Assembly: GCA_963808085.1 (NCBI GenBank)
Contig: CAWEFC010000006.1
Span: 137,328-161,327, forward strand
DNA: 24,000 nt
Direction of reading: 5' to 3'
From: an uncultured Acidobacteriota bacterium
GTDB taxonomy: Bacteria; Acidobacteriota; Terriglobia; UBA7540
Notes under the pieces: model-generated
The model's database searches: none
Seen by the model: the letters and a program-made list of their open reading frames with translations, nothing else
Told to the model about the DNA's origin: nothing
Position numbers and translations under genes: made by a program
Shown: positions 2,894-24,000 of the stretch, in pieces
Position numbering within the stretch: the first letter of the stretch is position 1
How the letters are laid out: every line of letters starts with the position of its first letter

Positions 2894-4294
2894 ATGCCCC
2901 TGCACCGGAAAAGCGACGTCAAACCTGAAATGGTGGACGAGATTTACGCCTCGCACGATCTTTCCGTCTGTGTGCCCAAATACAAATTCCCCAAGGGATC
3001 GCAGGACCCCCGGCACGCCTACGCCATCGTTCACGATGAGCTGATGCTCGACGGCAACTCCCGCCAGAACCTGGCCACCTTTTGTCAGACGTGGTCGGAG
3101 CCGCAAGTCGCCCAGTTGATGGCGGAGTGCATCGACAAGAACATGATCGACAAGGATGAATACCCGCAGTCGGCGGAGATCGAGGGGCGTTGCGTCCACA
3201 TGCTCGCTGACCTTTGGAATTGCCCCGAGTCCGCCTGCACCATCGGCACTTCCACCACGGGATCGAGCGAGGCTGCCATGTTGGGCGCCATGGCTCTAAA
3301 GTGGAAATGGCGCGAGAAAAGGCGGGCCCAACACCGGTCCGCGGAACGCCCCAACCTGGTGACGGGACCCGTGCAAGTGTGCTGGCACAAGTTCTGCCGC
3401 TATTGGGATGTCGAGCTTCGCGAGATCCCGCTCGACGGTGATCGTTTGCTGCTGACGCCGGAGCAGGTCGTCGAGCATTGCGACGAGAACACCATCGGGG
3501 TCGTGCCCACACTGGGTGTGACGTTCACCTGCCAGTACGAGCCGGTCAAGGAGGTCAGTGATGCGCTCGATGAACTGCAAGAAAAGCAGGGGCTCGACAT
3601 CCCCATTCACGTCGATGCGGCCAGCGGCGGCTTCCTGGCGCCTTTTATCCAGCCCGATCTGGTGTGGGATTTCCGCCTGCCGCGCGTGAAGTCCATCAAT
3701 ACCTCGGGGCACAAGTACGGACTCGCGCCGCTGGGAGTCGGCTGGGTGATCTGGCGCGAGCATTCCGACTTGCCGGATGACTTGGTGTTTGAGGTGAACT
3801 ACCTTGGCGGCAGCATGTCAACGTTCGCGCTGAATTTCTCGCGGCCTGGCGGCGAAGTGATCTGCCAGTATTACAACTTCCTGCGCCTGGGCCGCGAGGG
3901 ATACCGCGAAGTTCACCAGGCTTGTCACTCGACCGCTGTGTACCTGGCCCGGGAGATTGCCAAGCTCGGCCCGTTCAAGATCATTTACGGCGGTACGGGC
4001 GGCCTGCCCGCGGTCTGCTGGACCCTTCAGGACGGCGAGAATCCTGGCTTCACGCTCTATGATTTCGCCGACCGCCTGCGAAGCCGGGGCTGGCAGGTGC
4101 CGGCCTACTCCATGCCGCCCAACCGCAGCGACCTTGTGGTGCAGCGCATCCTCGTGCGCCATGGCTTCAGTCGAGATCTCGCCGCGCTTCTGCTCGAGGA
4201 CTTCCGGCGCACACTCGACTACTTTACCCAACACCCTGTGGCAACGCCTCTGGCGAAACACGAAGCCGGCGGACACGACCACAGTGGCCGGTAG
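2894..4294 (+). CDS. gad: Glutamate decarboxylase (PLP-dependent, GadA/GadB family)
   Basis: 466 aa. [13 protein letters not shown] and the PLP-lysine region [22 protein letters not shown] closely match the GadB signature. GAGGAG Shine-Dalgarno lies 8 nt upstream of the ATG. Confidence 0.9.
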
Positions 4295-4357
4295 CAAATG
4301 CTCTTTGGCAGCGCATTTCTGCCCTGCCATGTTGGGAGTTTGGGGGAGCGACGCCGA

Positions 4358-19182: not shown

Positions 19183-19225
19183 GGGGTGACAATTAGAACC
19201 CATTCTTGCCTAACGCCCGGCAGTT

Positions 19226-20182
19226 ATGAGTCGTGAAACCCGAGTACGTGTGGAGGTTTACGAGCCAAAGTACGAGGCTTGCTGGGATGAGTTTGTCCGT
19301 CAATCCAAGAATGGCGTGTTCATCTTCGACAGAGGTTACGTTGAATATCACGCCGATCGATTCACTGACCACTCACTTCTGTTCTTTCAAGACGATCAAC
19401 TGATAGGCGTCATGCCCGCAAACCGGGTCGAGGACACGGTGGTGTCACACGGAGGCCTCACGTTCGGCGGAATAATCTCCGGCCAGAGGATGAAGACGCA
19501 TCGGATGTTGGAAGTTTTTGCAGCTCTTGTGAACGACCTGCGCGCTCGGAGAGCGAAGAAGCTGATTTATAAGGCGATTCCTCATATTTATCATGTCCTT
19601 CCCGCAGAGGAAGACCTCTACGCGCTATTTCGGCACAACGCCAAGCTCGTTCGGCGGGATGTGTCTTCCACGGTGGCCACCGGACAGAAACTTCCGCTTC
19701 CCAAAGGACGGAAGGGAGCTCTACGGAGAGGAGTGGTGAAGGGGTTGGAAGTGGCACGCACACACGCGCTTTCCTCGTTCATAGCCATTGAGGAAGCGAA
19801 TCTCCAATCGCGTTACGGCGTGCGGCCGGTGCACACTGCCGCTGAAATGCAGCTTCTGGCCGATCGCTTTCCCGAGAACATCAAGCTTTTCACCGCGAGC
19901 CTTCAGGGCGAAGTGGAGGCGGGGGTAGTTATCTACGAGAGCAGAAATGTTGCGCACTGTCAGTATATTGGGGCCACGGAAAAGGGAAAAAGTCTTGGGG
20001 CGTTGGACTGCATCATGGAAGTGCTCCTGAATGAAGTTTACGCGGCCAAGCCCTATTTTGATTTCGGCATCTCGACCGTGGACAATGGACGCACCCTGAA
20101 CGCCGACTTGATCCAAAACAAGGAAAGTTATGGGGCGCGCGCGACGGTGTATGATTTCTATGAATTGAGCCTGGGAACATAA
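19226..20182 (+). CDS. FemAB/GNAT-fold acyltransferase-like protein commonly found in amino-sugar clusters
   Basis: 318 aa. The WDEFV...YHADRF..HSLLF...GGLTFGG pattern resembles the GNAT/FemAB-like family found next to FdtA/WxcM genes. This is a recollection-level call. Confidence 0.5.
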   Translation: MSRETRVRVEVYEPKYEACWDEFVRQSKNGVFIFDRGYVEYHADRFTDHSLLFFQDDQLIGVMPANRVEDTVVSHGGLTFGGIISGQRMKTHRMLEVFAALVNDLRARRAKKLIYKAIPHIYHVLPAEEDLYALFRHNAKLVRRDVSSTVATGQKLPLPKGRKGALRRGVVKGLEVARTHALSSFIAIEEANLQSRYGVRPVHTAAEMQLLADRFPENIKLFTASLQGEVEAGVVIYESRNVAHCQYIGATEKGKSLGALDCIMEVLLNEVYAAKPYFDFGISTVDNGRTLNADLIQNKESYGARATVYDFYELSLGT

Positions 20183-20637
20183 TGCGAATACATGACGCCG
20201 GCGCTCGGAGTGCGGAGTCGCATAATTCGACGCTCGCAAGTTGCCAGATCATCCGCTTGCCGCGGGTCGAGGATGTGCGTGGAAACCTTTCTTTTGTGGA
20301 GGAGAAACTCCATATCCCCTTTGCCATAAAGCGGGTCTATTGGGTCTATGATGTTCCCGGAGGGGCGACGCGCGACGGTCATGCCTACCGCACCCTGGAA
20401 GAGTTCATCATTGCCGTCTCCGGCAGCTTCGATGTGGCGATAGACGATGGCAAGGAACAGCAGGTGGTGCAACTGAACCGATCCTACATGGGGATATACG
20501 TTCCCCCCATGGTTTGGCGCAGCCTCGAGAACTTCTCCAGCAATTCGGTAGCGCTCATCCTGGCGTCCCAAACATACTCCGAGGACGATTACCTGCGCGA
20601 GTATCAAGAATTCACGCGTCTGCTGAACACGAAATGA
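20182..20637 (+). CDS. FdtA/QdtA/WxcM-like sugar 3,4-ketoisomerase cupin (copy 1)
   Basis: LPRVEDVRGNLSFVEE...IPFAIKRVYWVYDVPGG..RDGHAYR...ILASQTYSEDDY is the FdtA-type cupin pattern. The start ATG overlaps the upstream stop (TAATG). Confidence 0.75.
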   Translation: MRIHDAGARSAESHNSTLASCQIIRLPRVEDVRGNLSFVEEKLHIPFAIKRVYWVYDVPGGATRDGHAYRTLEEFIIAVSGSFDVAIDDGKEQQVVQLNRSYMGIYVPPMVWRSLENFSSNSVALILASQTYSEDDYLREYQEFTRLLNTK

Positions 20638-21050
20638 TCACCGTAGACGACTGCCGTTTGCTCGAGCTGCCGAGGATTGTTCAGCCCGGCCACGGCAGCA
20701 TCACGCCCGTGGAAGGTGGAAAGGACTTTCCGTTTGCCATTGCTCGCGTTTATTACCTCTACGATGTCCCCGGAGGTGAGTCGCGCGGGGGTCATGCACA
20801 CAAGGAATTGGAACAGGTAATCGTCGCCGCCCTGGGGTCTTTCGAGGTAGAGGTCGACGATGGTGCACACAAGAGGACGTTCCAACTGAACCGGAGCTAC
20901 CGCGGTTTCTACCTGCCGCGCCTGATTTGGAGGGAACTCAAGAATTTTTCATCCGGGGCAATCTGCCTGGTGATGGCCTCTCATCCATACCGCGAGGAGG
21001 ACTACTTTCGGGACTATTCGGAATTCGTTCGGCACCGGCAGGGGGGATGA
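20634..21050 (+). CDS. FdtA/QdtA/WxcM-like sugar 3,4-ketoisomerase cupin (copy 2)
   Basis: MITVDDCRLLELPRI...FPFAIARVYYLYDVPGGESRGGHAHKELEQ...VMASHPYREEDY. The ATG overlaps the stop of copy 1 (ATGA). The track's earlier start at 20514 lies inside copy 1. Confidence 0.75.
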   Translation: MITVDDCRLLELPRIVQPGHGSITPVEGGKDFPFAIARVYYLYDVPGGESRGGHAHKELEQVIVAALGSFEVEVDDGAHKRTFQLNRSYRGFYLPRLIWRELKNFSSGAICLVMASHPYREEDYFRDYSEFVRHRQGG

Positions 21051-21200
21051 GGTCATCTCGGTTGCGCACACCTTCATTGGCACGGCCGTGGCAATCGCGG
21101 GGACAGGAGCGACGCCGGTCTTTATTGATGTCGACCCCCCGACATACACCGTTGCCCTGGAGCAGTTGGCTTCAGCGTTCTCTCCGAACGGTGGCCAGAT
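21040..21200 (+). pseudogene. Remnant of a DegT/DnrJ/EryC1-type sugar aminotransferase (internal ~50-aa fragment only)
   Basis: Frame-1 translation GRGDEVISVAHTFIGTAVAIAGTGATPVFIDVDPPTYTVALEQLASAFSP matches the GDEVI..TF.AT..AI...GA.PVF.D.D..T motif block of DegT-family enzymes. The N-terminal ~80 aa and everything from the PLP-lysine region onward are absent. Homology stops near 21200. Confidence 0.65.
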
Positions 21201-21226
21201 CATGCCCTGCCGCACTGTCCCGCTTT

Positions 21227-21255
21227 TTGACGGTTTCGGCGGGGAGCGTTATAAT
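21227..21255 (+). promoter_or_regulatory. Near-consensus sigma-70-type promoter
   Basis: TTGACG (21227-21232), a 17-nt spacer, then TATAAT (21250-21255). It sits 33 nt upstream of the fmdB-like start, with GAGGAGG at 21276-21282. Confidence 0.6.
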
Positions 21256-21287
21256 TTACTGGATTCATCGCCATCGAGGAGGCTTTC

Positions 21288-21611
21288 TTGCCCCTTTACG
21301 AGTACAAGTGTAAAAAATGCGGGCGAAAGGTAGAGAAAATCCGGAAATTCTCGGACCCGCCTCTTACGACCTGTGAAAGTTGTGGAGGAAAACTCGAGCA
21401 ACTGCTCTCCTCGCCTGCCATTCGCTTCAAGGGTTCGGGTTTTTACGTCAACGATTACGCGCGGAAATCGTCAGACCCCAGCAGCACATCCTCTGCTGAT
21501 TCTGCCCCTTCCACCGATAAAAAAGAAACAGCTAAGGATAAGGGAACGGAAAAAGGGAAGGAATCCAGCAAGCCAAGTGAATCCGCCACTGCCGGTTCCA
21601 GCAAAACATAG
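21288..21611 (+). CDS. FmdB-family zinc-ribbon protein with Ser/Lys-rich C-terminal tail
   Basis: (M)PLYEYKCKKCG...TCESCGG...FKGSGFY is the FmdB/CxxC-CxxC zinc-ribbon signature. TTG start lies 5 nt after GAGGAGG. Confidence 0.8.
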   Translation: MPLYEYKCKKCGRKVEKIRKFSDPPLTTCESCGGKLEQLLSSPAIRFKGSGFYVNDYARKSSDPSSTSSADSAPSTDKKETAKDKGTEKGKESSKPSESATAGSSKT

Positions 21612-21614
21612 AGC

Positions 21615-21706
21615 CTGGGGGCAGTTGAAATTACGAATTACATTTGACGACCGCAATTCGTGATTTTGAATCCCCCTGACACTTGCTATTAGACCCCTGC
21701 CCCCAG
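21615..21706. other. Nested inverted repeats between convergent genes
   Basis: CTGGGGGCAG (21615-21624) pairs with CTGCCCCCAG (21697-21706). These enclose ACGAATT (21633-21639) and AATTCGT (21655-21661). Confidence 0.5.
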
Positions 21707-21716
21707 TGCCGAGCCC

Positions 21717-22595
21717 CTAAATGTCCAGCGACTTTAGATAGCGGCGAAAGGCTTTGCCCATGTCGGGCCGCTTTAGCGCGATTTCCACCGTCGCTTGCAG
21801 GAAACCCAGCTTATCACCCGCATCGTACCGCTTGCCTTCGAATACATATCCATAAATGGGTTCGCTGGCTAGGAGCCGCCGCAGTCCATCAGTGAGTTGA
21901 ATCTCCCCGCCGGCCCCGGGGATCGTGTTCGATAGGGCCTTCCAAATCGATGGACTCAGGATATAACGCCCAATGACCGCGAGATTCGAAGGGGCCTCCG
22001 AGGGCGAGGGCTTTTCGATCATATCCTCGATTTGGTAAAGCCGACCGTGGCTTTCTCGGTCCGAAACCAAATGCGCGCGAATGATACCGTAGCTGGACAC
22101 CGACTTTCGGGGTACCCGCTGAATCGCCACCACACTGTGCCCAAATCGTTCGTAGACTTCCATCATCTGCTTCAAACAGGGAACCTCGTTCACAATAATG
22201 TCGTCGGAAAGGAGTACCGCGAAGGGTTCATCCTCCACTAAGCCGCGTGCCGTCAGGATGGCATCGCCGAGTCCTTTGGGGATCTGCTGCCTTACATACG
22301 CAAAGCGCAGCATGCCGGAAATCTTCCGGAGTTGGCGGCGAAGTTCCTCTTTCCCTCTGCCGGCCAGTTCCTGCTCGAGTTCCGCGGAAACATCGAAGTG
22401 ATTTTCGATGGCCTGCTTGCCGCGTCCGGTAACGAACACCACCATGGGAATCCCGGAAGCAGCCACTTCCTCCACCGCATATTGCACTAGCGGCTTGTCT
22501 ACGATTGGCAACATCTCCTTGGGCTGGGCTTTGGTTGCTGGCAGGAAGCGCGTGCCGAGCCCTGCAACTGGTAACACCGCCTTGCGAATTCGCAT
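21717..22595 (-). CDS. galU: UTP-glucose-1-phosphate uridylyltransferase
   Basis: MRIRKAVLPVAGLGTRFLPATKAQPKEMLPIVDKPLVQYAVEE is the canonical GalU N-terminus. The start is taken at that Met (22595), not the track's upstream 22676. Confidence 0.9.
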   Translation of the reverse strand: MRIRKAVLPVAGLGTRFLPATKAQPKEMLPIVDKPLVQYAVEEVAASGIPMVVFVTGRGKQAIENHFDVSAELEQELAGRGKEELRRQLRKISGMLRFAYVRQQIPKGLGDAILTARGLVEDEPFAVLLSDDIIVNEVPCLKQMMEVYERFGHSVVAIQRVPRKSVSSYGIIRAHLVSDRESHGRLYQIEDMIEKPSPSEAPSNLAVIGRYILSPSIWKALSNTIPGAGGEIQLTDGLRRLLASEPIYGYVFEGKRYDAGDKLGFLQATVEIALKRPDMGKAFRRYLKSLDI

Positions 22596-22709
22596 GTGCC
22601 CTCGCTCGACCTGTGATTTCAATGCGACATCTACCCTTGCAATCCTCAGTGTATCCCTCGCTTCACCGCACGTCAAAGACTGCGTGAGATAGGCTCCATG
22701 GCAATTCGC

Positions 22710-22738
22710 TTGACTTTCACGAGCATTGCCATTAATCT
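22710..22738 (+). promoter_or_regulatory. Candidate promoter for the leader ORF and tRNA array
   Basis: TTGACT (22710-22715), a 17-nt spacer, then TAATCT (22733-22738). Confidence 0.45.
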
Positions 22739-22763
22739 AGAGTTTCATTCGAAGGAACATATA

Positions 22764-22847
22764 ATGCGATTTTCCTTAGGCTCCTCACTCTTGTCGCTAT
22801 CGTCGCTGAGTTATCTCAGCATGAACAGGGCGGAGGGGTCTGGGTAA
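22764..22847 (+). CDS. Candidate 27-codon leader peptide, Ser/Leu/Tyr-rich
   Basis: GAAGGAA lies 6 nt upstream of the ATG. The peptide is MRFSLGSSLLSLSSLSYLSMNRAEGSG. It is followed by a terminator and the tRNA array. Too short for the ORF track; see the finding. Confidence 0.4.
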   Translation: MRFSLGSSLLSLSSLSYLSMNRAEGSG

Positions 22848-22868
22848 CCGGAATTACATCAAAACCCC

Positions 22869-22904
22869 AAAAAGCCGCCCGTAAAAAGGCGGCTTTTTTA
22901 TTTT
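22869..22904 (+). terminator. Intrinsic terminator (bidirectional in shape) abutting the first tRNA
   Basis: AAAAAGCCGCC-cgtaaaaa-GGCGGCTTTTTTATTTT. The T-tract ends at 22904 and tRNA 1 starts at 22905. Confidence 0.75.
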
Positions 22905-22981
22905 GCGCGGGTGATGCAATGGGCAGACATGGCGGTCTCAAAAACCGCTTCTTGTGGGTTCAAATCCCTCTCCGCGCACCA
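22905..22981 (+). tRNA. tRNA with Leu anticodon CAA, 77 nt, short (5-nt) variable loop, CCA encoded
   Basis: Manual fold:
- acceptor GCGCGGG/TCCGCGC
- D arm ATG(C)-AATGGGCAG-(A)CAT
- anticodon arm GCGGT-CTCAAAA-ACCGC
- variable TTCTT
- T arm GTGGG-TTCAAAT-CCCTC (one mismatch)
- A73, then CCA. Confidence 0.75.
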
Positions 22982-22982
22982 G

Positions 22983-23073
22983 GGAAGCGTGGCTCAGTGG
23001 CGACGGCAGCGGGCTGTAGACCCGCCACCCCTTGTGGGTAACACCGAAGGTTCGACTCCTTCCGCTTCCACCA
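22983..23073 (+). tRNA. tRNA-Tyr (GUA), 91 nt, long variable region, CCA encoded
   Basis: Manual fold:
- acceptor GGAAGCG/CGCTTCC
- anticodon arm GCGGG-CTGTAGA-CCCGC
- ~20-nt variable region CACCCCTTGTGGGTAACACC
- T arm GAAGG-TTCGACT-CCTTC
- A73, then CCA. Confidence 0.8.
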
Positions 23074-23079
23074 AGATTT

Positions 23080-23158
23080 GCCGGGATGGTCAAAATGGCA
23101 AAGGCGCTCCGTTCAGACCGGAGAGATTTTGCGAGTTCGACTCTCGCTCCCGGCACCA
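23080..23158 (+). tRNA. tRNA with Leu anticodon CAG, 79 nt, short (7-nt) variable loop, CCA encoded
   Basis: Manual fold:
- acceptor GCCGGGA/TCCCGGC
- D arm GTC-AAAATGGCAAA-GGC
- anticodon arm CTCCG-TTCAGAC-CGGAG
- variable AGATTTT
- T arm GCGAG-TTCGACT-CTCGC
- A73, then CCA. Confidence 0.75.
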
Positions 23159-23164
23159 AGTTCG

Positions 23165-23238
23165 GCCCAAGTGACGCAATCGGTAGACGTGCCACTTTGA
23201 GATGGTGGATGTTGGAGGTTCGAATCCTCTCTTGGGCA
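23165..23238 (+). tRNA. tRNA with Leu anticodon GAG, 74 nt to the discriminator, short (5-nt) variable loop, CCA not fully encoded (ACC then next tRNA)
   Basis: Manual fold:
- acceptor GCCCAAG/CTTGGGC
- D arm ACG(C)-AATCGGTAG-(A)CGT
- anticodon arm CCACT-TTGAGAT-GGTGG
- variable ATGTT
- T arm GGAGG-TTCGAAT-CCTCT
- A73. Confidence 0.75.
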
Positions 23239-23240
23239 CC

Positions 23241-23328
23241 GGAAGAATGGCCGAGCGGTAAGGCACCGAGTTGCTAACTCGGAGTCTGGGTAAAACCGGC
23301 GCAGGTTCGATCCCTGTTTCTTCCGCCA
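23241..23328 (+). tRNA. tRNA-Ser (GCU), 88 nt, long variable arm, CCA encoded
   Basis: Manual fold:
- acceptor GGAAGAA/TTCTTCC
- D region GCCGAGCGGTAAGGCA
- anticodon arm CCGAG-TTGCTAA-CTCGG
- 18-nt variable arm
- T arm GCAGG-TTCGATC-CCTGT
- G73, then CCA. Confidence 0.85.
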
Positions 23329-23335
23329 AATTTTC

Positions 23336-23425
23336 GGAAGGTTGGCCGAGTCCGGTAAGGCTCCGGTCCTGAAAACCGGTGACTCCGTAAAAGGAGCAGG
23401 GGTTCGAATCCTCTACCTTCCGCCA
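23336..23425 (+). tRNA. tRNA-Ser (UGA), 90 nt, long variable arm, C at position 33, CCA encoded
   Basis: Manual fold:
- acceptor GGAAGGT/ACCTTCC
- D region GCCGAGTCCGGTAAGGCT
- anticodon arm CCGGT-CCTGAAA-ACCGG
- variable arm TGACTCCGTAAAAGGAGC
- T arm AGGGG-TTCGAAT-CCTCT
- G73, then CCA. Confidence 0.8.
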
Positions 23426-23430
23426 ACATT

Positions 23431-23504
23431 GGGGCCATAGCGAAATGGCATAGCAGAAGTCTTAAACACTTCGTTTCCGGGTTCGAATCCCGGTGGCCCC
23501 ACCA
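23431..23504 (+). tRNA. tRNA with Leu anticodon UAA, 74 nt, short (4-nt) variable loop, CCA encoded
   Basis: Manual fold:
- acceptor GGGGCCA/TGGCCCC
- D arm GCGA-AATGGCA-TAGC
- anticodon arm GAAGT-CTTAAAC-ACTTC
- variable GTTT
- T arm CCGGG-TTCGAAT-CCCGG
- A73, then CCA. Confidence 0.75.
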
Positions 23505-23514
23505 AAGCAGGAAA

Positions 23515-23541
23515 CAATTGCCGATCGCCGATTGCCGATTG
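23515..23541. repeat. Heptamer repeat block ATTGCCG x ~3.5 (inverted relative to 23597-23669)
   Basis: CA ATTGCCG ATCGCCG ATTGCCG ATTG. Confidence 0.8.
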
Positions 23542-23596
23542 AGCGCCAGGGATTGACCAATGCCGGCCGACAACAAAAAACTCACCCTCTGCGGAC

Positions 23597-23669
23597 AATC
23601 GGCAATCCTCAATCGACAATCGGCAATGGTGAATTGACAATCGGCAATCGGCAATCGAAAATCGTCAAT
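23597..23669. repeat. Tandem heptamer array, consensus CAATCGG, about 10.5 units, ending at the tsaD start codon
   Basis: CAATCGG CAATCCT CAATCGA CAATCGG CAATGGT GAATTGA CAATCGG CAATCGG CAATCGA AAATCGT CAAT, followed directly by ATG. Confidence 0.85.
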
Positions 23670-24000
23670 ATGCTTGTCCTAGGGATTGAATCCAGTTGCG
23701 ATGAAACGGCGGCGGCGGTCGTGGCCGACGGCGAGCGCATTCGCTCGAGCGTTGTGGCCTCACAGATTCTGACGCATGAAAAATACGGAGGCGTAGTTCC
23801 CGAACTCGCTTCGCGGGAGCACTTGCGTGCGATCGAACCGATTGTGGATGAAGCCTGCAGTCAGGCCGATGTGAAACTGCGCGAAGTGGACGCGATCGCG
23901 GTCACCGAAGGTCCGGGCTTGATTGGGTCGCTGTTGGTGGGTCTGGTTTACGGCAAGGCTTTGGCGTTATCCCTGAATAAACCTTTGGTGGGGGTAAATC
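23670..24000 (+). CDS. tsaD: tRNA N6-adenosine threonylcarbamoyltransferase TsaD (N-terminal part, continues off the right edge)
   Basis: [18 protein letters not shown]...[18 protein letters not shown]...[14 protein letters not shown] is the canonical TsaD/Kae1 N-terminus. Not in the ORF track because there is no stop codon in the window. Confidence 0.9.

Follow-up and report, generated by a model that had tools for sequence, protein, structure and literature searches.

A codon-matched leader reading frame in front of a seven-gene tRNA array: a candidate attenuator of tRNA genes

Leader, terminator and tRNA array

The window, by which we mean the whole 24,000-nucleotide stretch of Acidobacteriota DNA analysed here, carries seven tRNA genes behind a short reading frame and an intrinsic terminator (Table 1). 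The tRNAs scored 48-60 bits against Rfam and decode Leu, Tyr and Ser only. Their tRNA-Leu genes have a short variable loop, a type that is common in phage arrays. A sequence-only reading made before this analysis had proposed that the reading frame and the terminator form a translation-coupled attenuator of the tRNA genes. Its description of the parts was borne out at every point. Each of the seven anticodons (CAA, GTA, CAG, GAG, GCT, TGA and TAA) has a cognate codon in the leader (7/7) and, as had been said, the leader codons CTA and TCC are without a cognate tRNA in the array. The dense Ser/Leu/Tyr run in codons 4-19 was confirmed by counting. The leader uses six of the six Ser codons, five of the six Leu codons (CTT is missing) and TAT; several of these had been suspected to be rare, and counts over the window's genes gave TTA, CTA, TCT and TCA a share of only 4-6% each within their codon families.

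Table 1. Features of the tRNA locus, in positions of the window.
Feature	Position	Strand	Basis and remarks
Cassette: promoter-like site, leader ORF, terminator and seven tRNAs	22680-23516	+	comparison with relatives; 837 bp
Promoter-like site, TTGACT-17 nt-TAATCT	22710-22738	+	direct reading; TTGACT 22710-22715, TAATCT 22733-22738
Shine-Dalgarno-like GAAGGAA	22751-22757	+	6 nt before ATG 22764
Leader ORF, predicted product MRFSLGSSLLSLSSLSYLSMNRAEGSG	22764-22847	+	reading and homologues; 27 codons, stop TAA 22845-22847
Putative codon-sampling run, codons 4-19	22773-22820	+	15/16 Ser/Leu/Tyr
1:2 hairpin, CU-rich sampling arm with G-rich 3' part of the ORF	22775-22844	+	MFE fold
Region 2, putative antiterminator strand GGGCGGAGGGGT, within codons 22-26	22828-22839	+	predicted pairing
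Region 3, ACCCCAAAAAGCCGCCC, overlaps the terminator 5' arm	22864-22880	+	predicted pairing
Intrinsic terminator	22869-22904	+	stem 22869-22898, T-tract to 22904; 11 pairs; -16.5 kcal/mol
tRNA-Leu(CAA), short variable loop	22905-22981	+	tRNA call, Rfam
tRNA-Tyr(GTA)	22983-23073	+	tRNA call, Rfam
tRNA-Leu(CAG), short variable loop	23080-23158	+	tRNA call, Rfam
tRNA-Leu(GAG), short variable loop	23165-23240	+	tRNA call, Rfam
tRNA-Ser(GCT)	23241-23328	+	tRNA call, Rfam
tRNA-Ser(TGA)	23336-23425	+	tRNA call, Rfam
tRNA-Leu(TAA), short variable loop	23431-23504	+	tRNA call, Rfam

The two promoter hexamers are present as had been described, but a consensus scan made no call there; because the score was 8/12 and thereby below the threshold of 9, we grade the site only as promoter-like. 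The Shine-Dalgarno-like motif ahead of the ATG that opens the leader was read as before. A longer frame of 49 amino acids from the in-frame ATG at 22698 was rejected, since its start is not conserved. The T-tract of the terminator runs up to the nucleotide before the first tRNA, so the abutment is as claimed. Direct reading also led us to reject a promoter concealed within the terminator, where no plausible -35 hexamer is found and from where a transcription start would land inside the tRNA.

The cassette in bacterial relatives and in phage DNA

The comparison of the cassette drew on two bacterial sequence types and a single close homologue from a phage. It was present in the strain type with a 99%-identical GalU and had no counterpart in the close relatives L087-L089 (GalU 90-93% identical), where the junction at the empty site reads ...CGTCAAAGA followed directly by ATTGCCGAT... 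and the called galU and tsaD genes are separated by a gap of ~30-160 nt. In the window tsaD is the next protein gene and lies outside the cassette. A GalU-based genome scan found 80 loci; tRNAs beside galU were seen at 0/60 loci scanned, and galU and tsaD are adjacent in the two closest relatives of that scan. One metagenome that was scanned yielded no sequences beyond those already known.

The viral contig IMGVR_UViG_3300036766_000125 carries the same seven tRNAs in unchanged order. They are preceded by a homologous leader, MRILSSSLLLSSLSYLSRDRGGGA, and the terminator after this leader abuts the first tRNA. At the viral locus L161 seven tRNAs in the window's order are followed by terminase and portal genes. 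The window's tRNA-Leu(CAG) is ~97% identical to the copy on the phage contig and 81% identical to that of the jumbo phage Tunturi_5. Because L161 shares the seven tRNAs and their order and carries phage structural genes, we concluded that the cassette is a phage-type tRNA array module. Judged by these comparisons it is phage-derived, a sub-array that now resides in the bacterial chromosome, and not a native tRNA operon. The phage origin is a point that the sequence-only reading did not contain.

For the two bacterial strain types, divergence was 8.3% in the leader ORF, 7.0% in the spacer with the terminator (~8% for leader and terminator together), 18.5-23.8% in the flanking non-coding DNA and 3.0% in the tRNAs. 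Relative to these flanks, conservation of the leader and terminator is 2.5-3 times higher. In the second strain type (L082) the leader ORF is intact, with the same start and Shine-Dalgarno-like motif and with the stop codon TAG instead of TAA; the -35 hexamer is the same and the -10 hexamer reads TAAACT. The segment TCGAAGGAAC is identical in both types, within a stretch that is 24% diverged. Conservation in relatives had been named as a check of the attenuator proposal, and the leader ORF, its Shine-Dalgarno-like motif and its stop were found to be kept in this strain type as well as in the phage homologue. The divergence pattern supports the view that leader and terminator have probably been under selection.

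Leaders matched to their tRNA modules in phages

The composition of the leader tracks the downstream tRNA set in several lineages. The first leader of the viral contig IMGVR_UViG_3300036766_000125, MLRFPKPETKRERQGRPSIAMCAHWQFDRTVIATNPGRGGSG, has 42 codons and contains cognate codons for 25/25 tRNAs of its module; 5 of 1.17 million background windows do as well, a number that agrees with the 5 such windows lying in that contig's own loci. Tunturi_5 carries three tRNA modules, each behind a matching leader. When the best 15-codon window of each leader was scored against the three tRNA sets A, B and C, leader A gave 15, 4 and 8, leader B 1, 15 and 6, and leader C 2, 6 and 13, respectively. Leader A (Leu/Cys/Tyr/Ser) contains two Cys codons and its array includes a tRNA-Cys. 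Leaders A and B had no equal in the six frames of 53 kb. In an unrelated AT-rich phage contig (L129) the leader MNNRWFNNIRRRNGGG is followed by a terminator and then by Trp, Arg, Arg, Asn, Phe, Arg, Ile and Arg tRNAs, and no other place in the locus has its 12/12 matching codons. Matches between leader and module were seen three times in Tunturi_5, in L172 and in L129, and leaders with their own tRNA modules occur in three independent phage lineages. In each of two screens run with fixed rules over all phage tRNA modules, these leaders came out at the top. By direct reading, Shine-Dalgarno-like motifs are poor or absent in several of the phage leaders.

Against the background of 1.7 Mb such a leader composition is essentially unique. 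A six-frame reading of the 1.73 Mb of fetched DNA gave stop-free windows with at least 14/16 Ser/Leu/Tyr codons only in the window's leader and its homologue. The joint statistic over the whole ORF was modest for the window's leader alone (398 of 1.6 million windows, its own copies counted).

Most of the phage tRNA arrays examined have no such leader. Hairpins of the terminator type that abut tRNAs are common in phages, thus this feature alone is not special. The tRNAs of the cultured phages phiLo and Phosso are scattered, which made these phages uninformative, and no matching leader was found in them or in the jumbo contig L156; the Pro/Met/Phe modules of L300-L302 had no significant matching leader. 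Viral scans with the region 2 motif and with the leader palindrome returned nothing new, or only the known contig together with chance matches in coding DNA, and none of the 120 matches of a terminator-motif scan was followed by a tRNA. A scan with a 26-mer from tRNA-Tyr gave 0 matches though L161 contains this 26-mer, and we therefore do not regard the negative scans as reliable. A protein search with the 42-amino-acid leader found no homologues, and the relatives of the phage contig's TerL (at most 56% identity) carried no tRNAs.

Folding of the leader and the proposed switch

In the MFE fold the CU-rich arm of the leader is paired with the G-rich 3' part of the ORF in a long 1:2 hairpin, and the whole leader has a z of -4.3. 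This strong hairpin had been overlooked in the sequence-only reading. The predicted energies were -35.3 kcal/mol for the 1:2 hairpin folded alone, -22.4 kcal/mol for the antiterminator domain and -16.5 kcal/mol for the terminator. The complementarity between GGGCGG-A-GGGGT in region 2 and ACCCC-AAAAAG-CCGCCC in region 3, from which an antiterminator had been proposed, is present, and this pairing alone has a predicted energy of -15.5 kcal/mol. A comparison of the two conformers, suggested at the same time, did not come out in favour of the antiterminator: equilibrium folding favoured the terminator at every ribosome position (P ~0.95 in the window), and with the complete leader and terminator the P of the terminator was at least 0.75 in four of the four leaders tested. 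A switch at thermodynamic equilibrium was rejected, as the terminator always wins; any antitermination would thus have to be kinetic.

In the switch model a ribosome was placed on the codons while the 3' arm of the terminator was still untranscribed. The predicted pairing of region 2 with region 3 in the window then had a P of ~0.8 with the modelled ribosome on codons 2-18 and of 0.3-0.6 on codons 19-28. For eight of the eight leaders modelled, the 5' arm was paired with region 2 with P 0.76-1.0 when the ribosome was on the sampling codons and with 0.1-0.6 once region 2 was covered. The terminators of these eight leaders are five different sequences, and the complement in region 2 is present in every case. 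In each of the eight, 20-31 nt separate the stop codon from the terminator core. Shuffle controls were individually weak: 16% of the shuffles of the window and 28% of those of L129 paired the 5' arm equally well, and the Fisher combination of five independent controls, by our own arithmetic, was ~7e-4. In the truncated RNA of the window the model still gave the antiterminator without a ribosome (P 0.76), so superattenuation is not cleanly predicted. In leader A of Tunturi_5 region 2 is, according to the model, no longer masked by a ribosome at the stop codon.

We propose that the element is a ribosome-mediated transcription attenuator with tRNA genes as the regulated genes, and put the probability of this reading at about 0.6. 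The trp/his-like control suggested by the sequence-only reading is supported because leader codons match the tRNAs in independent phage modules, the leader is conserved, and the predicted antiterminator pairing recurs. The direction of the switch given here is predicted from folding models with weak controls. The transcript would start near 22745 and carry the leader ORF, which would be translated and whose codons 4-19 would sample the Leu, Ser and Tyr codons decoded by the seven tRNAs downstream. With fast decoding the ribosome would advance through the G-rich end of the ORF to the stop codon and cover region 2, the terminator would form, and RNA polymerase would halt ahead of the first tRNA. 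Were one of the Leu, Ser or Tyr tRNAs scarce or uncharged, the ribosome would stall on the sampling codons with region 1 covered and region 2 free, and the free region 2 could pair with the terminator's 5' arm while the 3' arm is still to be synthesised, letting transcription enter the tRNA array. Without a ribosome the 1:2 hairpin would form, followed by termination. The outcome would be a negative feedback that matches tRNA supply to decoding demand. A shortage of tRNA could follow host tRNA cleavage by anticodon nucleases or host shut-off. We consider the odds even for a wider scenario, in which phages would keep tRNA modules each under its own leader attenuator, with approximately one codon per encoded tRNA so that any shortage turns the module on, and an Acidobacteriota lineage would have captured the Leu/Tyr/Ser module.

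The same parts might also act in the opposite direction. An undelayed ribosome that trails the polymerase would then block the terminator and cause read-through, stalling would uncouple the two and lead to termination, and tRNA transcription would rise with good decoding. In line with this, the stop codon lies just 20-31 nt before the terminator core in eight of the eight leaders, and the antiterminator was never favoured in equilibrium folding. PMC4824070 reports that a terminator a few bp past a gene is almost fully repressed and that efficiency grows with distance, which points the same way. A ribosome at the stop codon covers ~12-15 nt, however, which falls short of the terminator core. 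This scheme also has no use for the complement of the 5' arm that is found in the last codons of every leader despite the differing terminators, and it would amount to a positive feedback on tRNA supply without obvious benefit. We regard it as unlikely.

It is rather improbable that the leader is a structured RNA and not a translated sensor, i.e. a processing or stability signal of the tRNA precursor or else a small RNA that ends at a terminator of its own, in which the Ser/Leu-rich ORF would be a by-product of the CU-rich hairpin arm. Such an arm predicts Ser, Leu, Phe and Pro, and leaves unexplained both Tyr and the Cys codons that appear exactly where the array gains a tRNA-Cys. Unlike leaders match their own modules (N/Q/G/T/P/H/A/F, W/D/M/K/V/R/E and N/R/W/F/I; 25/25 tRNAs), and frame, start and stop are kept between strains. 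The points in its favour are structural: the hairpin of -35 kcal/mol at 22775-22844 and the z of the whole leader, the similarly long hairpin that encloses the ORF in leader A of Tunturi_5, the palindrome GCTGAGTTATCTCAGC in the window's leader, which accounts for its AGT and AGC codons, and the frequency of tRNA-abutting terminators in phage arrays. Finally, the arrangement could be a coincidence, with a terminator that ends an upstream transcript and tRNAs expressed by read-through or from an unrecognised promoter. The weak promoter-like site, the modest whole-ORF statistic of the window alone and the confinement of the pattern to few lineages would agree with this. Chance was already disfavoured by the absence of any further window with at least 14/16 Ser/Leu/Tyr codons in the fetched DNA and by the conservation of leader and terminator relative to the flanks; a leader that travels with seven tRNAs between phage and bacterium and the independent matches in Tunturi_5, L172 and L129 also speak against it, and we hold it to be very improbable indeed.

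The attenuator reading has relatives among known systems. Like the window, the trpL, hisL, leuL, thrL, ilvL and pheL attenuators of amino-acid operons have a short ORF enriched in regulatory codons and a terminator before the regulated genes, and they have the exclusive 1:2, 2:3 and 3:4 pairings, chosen by the position of the ribosome, that are predicted for the window. They regulate protein-coding biosynthetic genes and have a run of one or two amino acids in the leader, whereas here seven tRNA genes lie downstream and many codons are used, up to 15 amino acids and 25 tRNAs in other modules. The product sensed (decoding capacity) would here be the product made, and the element is phage-borne and modular. 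In E. coli, pheST is under the pheM leader attenuator, which responds to charged tRNA and likewise acts on part of the translation apparatus and not on biosynthesis; it regulates an aminoacyl-tRNA synthetase mRNA and senses a single amino acid, whereas here tRNA genes would be regulated. T-box riboswitches, like the model for the window, couple tRNA status to terminator read-through via the choice between terminator and antiterminator. They differ from the window in that they lack a leader ORF, sense uncharged tRNA by direct binding and control synthetase and amino-acid genes. When 22000-24000 was scanned against Rfam at permissive settings, no leader family matched (best Phe_leader, E 0.82, 22.5 bits with the gathering score at 55) and neither did the T-box (RF00230). 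A known RNA family was rejected, as Rfam yielded only the tRNAs and sub-threshold chance matches.

Phage tRNA arrays include a sub-array that is homologous to the seven tRNAs of the window and shares their order; in the window they lie on a bacterial chromosome. Regulation of bacterial tRNA genes is thought to act mainly at promoters, via growth rate and the stringent response. If our reading is true, this would be the first known case of attenuation acting on tRNA genes and a feedback loop directly on tRNA supply. To read decoding capacity codon by codon and adjust the corresponding tRNA genes would then be a regulatory principle new to tRNA homeostasis. In agreement with the sequence-only reading, which knew of no described attenuator of tRNA genes, we found no paper in the literature searched in full text that describes leader ORFs or attenuators before tRNA modules. 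The tRNA passages of the Tunturi paper (PMC11924767), which assigns 43 tRNAs to Tunturi_5, give the tRNA genes and do not mention leader ORFs. The proposed control would also account for the deployment of tRNA arrays solely under host tRNA limitation, with a mechanistic tie to host defences that target tRNAs, and for the division of arrays into modules. The cassette documents the transfer of a tRNA module, presumably a regulated one, between phage and bacterial chromosome, and leaders of this kind could be put to use as compact, programmable sensors that report whether specific tRNAs are available. Both Tunturi_5 and its host, Tunturiibacter psychrotolerans X4BP1, are cultured (PMC11924767), and the idea is thus directly testable.

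Leader, terminator and tRNA genes

All features listed in the sequence-only reading were confirmed in the window (table below). The hexamers of the promoter-like site are 17 nt apart, and the site has 8/12 matches, which is under the consensus-scan threshold. GAAGGAA lies 6 nt 5' of the leader ATG. The leader product is MRFSLGSSLLSLSSLSYLSMNRAEGSG; Ser, Leu and Tyr make up 15/16 of codons 4-19; none of the six Ser codons is missing, and five for Leu plus TAT also occur. The codons TTA, CTA, TCT and TCA are infrequent in the window's genes, each with a share of only 4-6% within its codon family. A single terminator was found in the scan, adjoining the first of seven tRNAs that are specific for Leu, Tyr and Ser only. 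The leader had no matching family in Rfam.

All four tRNA-Leu genes, 74-79 nt long, have short variable loops (class I-like). A long variable arm is normal for bacterial tRNA-Leu. The short-loop type was frequent in phage tRNA arrays, and 65 viral contigs matched one pattern.

Coordinates of features in the window
Feature	Position	Strand	Remark
Sugar-modification-like genes	~19200-21650		upstream of galU
Zinc-ribbon protein	21288-21611		
galU	21717-22676	minus	called ORF, read from ATG 22598; flanks cassette
Inserted segment	22680-23516		837 bp
Promoter-like site	22710-22715; 22733-22738		TTGACT; TAATCT
GAAGGAA	22751-22757		
Leader ORF	22764-22847		ATG 22764; stop TAA 22845-22847
Terminator stem	22869-22898		T-tract end 22904
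Seven tRNAs	22905-23504		ARAGORN, Rfam
Leu-CAA	22905-22981		short variable loop
Tyr-GTA			
Leu-CAG	23080-23158		short variable loop
Leu-GAG	23165-23240		short variable loop
Ser-GCT			
Ser-TGA			
Leu-TAA	23431-23504		short variable loop
Heptamer array	23517-23669		directly 5' of tsaD
tsaD	from 23671		flanks cassette on other side

The cassette and its bacterial neighbourhood

The window comes from a member of the Acidobacteriota, class Terriglobia. In species-level relatives galU is the direct neighbour of tsaD, the two genes diverge, and zero tRNAs separate them; in the closest of these relatives, L001, an N run at 546-555 within this intergenic region leaves a small part of the comparison blind. 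The window carries its 837 bp exactly at the junction where relatives read CGTCAAAGA directly followed by ATTGCCGAT; promoter-like site, leader, terminator and the seven tRNAs thus constitute a single acquired cassette. Contigs with GalU 90-93% identical have the called galU and tsaD only ~30-160 nt apart. The same region is present, at 91% DNA identity, in contigs with a 99%-identical GalU.

Between the two bacterial strain types divergence was 18.5-23.8% in flanking non-coding DNA, 8.3% in the leader ORF, 7.0% in the spacer plus terminator and 3.0% in the tRNAs. The ORF, TCGAAGGAAC and the stop (TAA changed to TAG) were retained. The in-frame ATG 22698 was tried as leader start and is absent from the other strain type; we therefore concluded that ATG 22764 is the start.

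Heptamer repeats (ATTGCCG / CAATCGG, 21-nt spaced copies, inverted arms) form an array whose left edge is the exact insertion point; the array overlaps promoter-like sites and is also found in relatives without the cassette. By their Pfam labels, the genes upstream of galU look like a sugar-modification cluster: two are FdtA-like, one is acetyltransferase-like and one encodes a zinc-ribbon protein whose tail is rich in Ser and Lys.

Phage leaders and their tRNA modules

The window's tRNA-Leu(CAG) has an 81% match in the Tunturiibacter phage Tunturi_5 and a ~97% match in viral contig IMGVR_UViG_3300036766_000125, in which more than 30 tRNAs are followed by terminase and portal genes. The final seven of these tRNAs are the window's seven in identical order. 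The 185-nt spacer between them and the preceding tRNA-Gln contains, in this order, an ORF (ATG...MRILSSSLLLSSLSYLSRDRGGGA, stop), a 20-nt spacer and a terminator (AGGCCGCC-CCTCAAAA-GGCGGCCT plus TTTTTGTTTT) adjoining tRNA-Leu(CAA). The cassette is of phage origin, and this ORF is the homologue of its leader. Negatives from our scan of the viral-contig collection are not dependable, as a 26-mer present in this contig returned no match.

A first leader in the same contig, MLRFPKPETKRERQGRPSIAMCAHWQFDRTVIATNPGRGGSG with stop and then a terminator, lies 5' of a 25-tRNA module; its end, CAGGGCGTGGAGGGAGCGGGTAG, is similar to the window's CAGGGCGGAGGGGTCTGGGTAA. It contains cognate codons for 25/25 tRNAs of its own module. 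Out of 1.17 million equally long stop-free windows, just 5 reached such coverage; the contig's own loci gave the same number, so these windows are apparently the first leader itself. A tRNA-like sequence (GCTGGTGTGGCACAGCGG...CCACCAGCTCCA), uncalled by ARAGORN and having an unusual anticodon loop, lies just 5' of this leader at ~4649-4725 of L172, the locus with the 25-tRNA module.

Tunturi_5 has three modules. Module A (Leu, Cys, Leu, Leu, Tyr, Leu, Ser, Ser, Ser) has an unannotated leader, MKTLCLSSYCLSSSLSLSDGWDLRTGRDADMI with stop, of which codons 4-18 are 15/15 Leu/Cys/Ser/Tyr, and the terminator adjoins the first tRNA. Module B (Asn, Gln, Gly, Thr, Pro, His, Ala, Phe) is preceded by ...MQHVSTFRFAVPATAGNPAGQQGTNACDTGGGKVVKW, stop and terminator, and module C (Trp, Asp, Met, Lys, Val, Arg, Glu) by gp308 (MKQILKQLGHDFDIRGKRGVVVDTWDITIRGERKWSDVRDMRVLRERPV), stop and terminator. 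When each leader was compared with each module (best 15-codon windows), the diagonal gave 15, 15 and 13 and the off-diagonal 1-8. Leaders A and B had no equal in 70,000 windows of the phage, and module tRNAs were covered 8/9, 14/15 and 14/14. ORF277 (L155, the Tunturi_5 locus, 4108-4335; 75 aa, hypothetical) is located midway in the Leu/Cys/Tyr/Ser module and is flanked by tRNA-Leu(CAG) and tRNA-Tyr.

In L129, an unrelated AT-rich 139-kb contig, a promoter-like site with TTGACA precedes the leader MNNRWFNNIRRRNGGG (with stop) and a terminator. Four tRNAs come next (Trp, Arg, Arg, Asn), then a gene for an HNH endonuclease and four more tRNAs (Phe, Arg, Ile, Arg). The 12/12 matching codons of this leader are unique in the locus. 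HNH genes within tRNA arrays were seen at L129 4346-4951, at L161 (the phage homologue) 1789-2334 and at L173 8149-8670. In modules split in this way the leader still samples tRNAs on either side, which suggests later homing-endonuclease insertion.

Two fixed-rule screens (243 modules; 127 ORF-module pairs) ranked these leaders top, and most phage tRNA arrays in them had no matching leader. At least 14/16 Ser/Leu/Tyr was reached only by Ser/Leu/Tyr leaders (1.73 Mb, six frames). A weaker case is the Ser/Leu/Tyr-rich ORF MDRRRYLRLTSSRSSSSLS with stop (L299, a high-GC 134-kb phage contig, 3415-3474), ending 3 nt 5' of a Ser-Ser-Leu-Tyr module from which no terminator separates it. This ORF could be a different form of the design, or else an artefact of reading GC-rich DNA out of frame. 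The comparison, covering three to four independent lineages, supports the interpretation of the element as a trp/his-like leader-peptide attenuator of tRNA genes.

RNA folding and relation to known attenuators

The minimum free energy fold of 22740-22904 contains a long hairpin (22775-22844), in which the CU-rich arm holding the sampling codons is base-paired to the G-rich ORF end, and then the terminator (z = -4.3). The sequence-only reading had recognised only the 2:3 and 3:4 pairings and missed this 1:2 hairpin; together the folds give the classical 1:2 / 2:3 / 3:4 layout. Computed energies (kcal/mol) put the 1:2 hairpin at -35.3, the antiterminator domain at -22.4 and the terminator at -16.5; the two antiterminator helices proposed earlier gave -15.5 on their own.

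The footprint of the modelled ribosome extended 15 nt to the 5' side of the A-site codon and 12 nt to its 3' side. A complete terminator had a probability of ~0.95 in the window and never below 0.75 in any of the four leaders tested, whatever the ribosome position; thus no switch results from equilibrium folding. With the 3' arm untranscribed and the ribosome on the sampling codons, the terminator 5' arm paired with region 2 (the G-rich antiterminator segment at the ORF end) with P 0.76-1.0, dropping to 0.1-0.6 with the footprint over the last 6-10 codons. This modelled effect was seen in 8/8 leaders, in all of which the stop codon is 20-31 nt 5' of the terminator core. From the modelling we infer a trp-like direction, in which stalling on the leader would cause read-through into the tRNA genes; the opposite direction, with termination upon stalling, is a less likely possibility. 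Translation of the leader and the signal sensed are likewise presumed.

The region 2 partner varies together with the terminator across leaders: GGGCGG : CCGCCC in the window, GGGGUGGC : GCCGCCCC in the phage homologue, GGUUGGG : CCCAGCC and UUGAGGG : CCCUCGA in Tunturi_5 A and C, and GGCGG : CCGCC in L129. Shuffle controls for the pairing gave 0.015-0.36, each weak alone, and ~7e-4 for five independent ones combined.

Our full-text literature search, of incomplete coverage, found no description of an attenuator or leader peptide before tRNA genes, and an earlier one is possible. The tRNA passages of the Tunturi paper (PMC11924767) list tRNAs and mention no leaders. The window element shares a short leader ORF, enrichment in regulatory codons and an intrinsic terminator with the leader-peptide attenuators of amino-acid operons; with its predicted antiterminator pairing it would act alike. 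Unlike these it would target tRNA genes, samples many codons instead of a run of one, and is phage-borne and modular.
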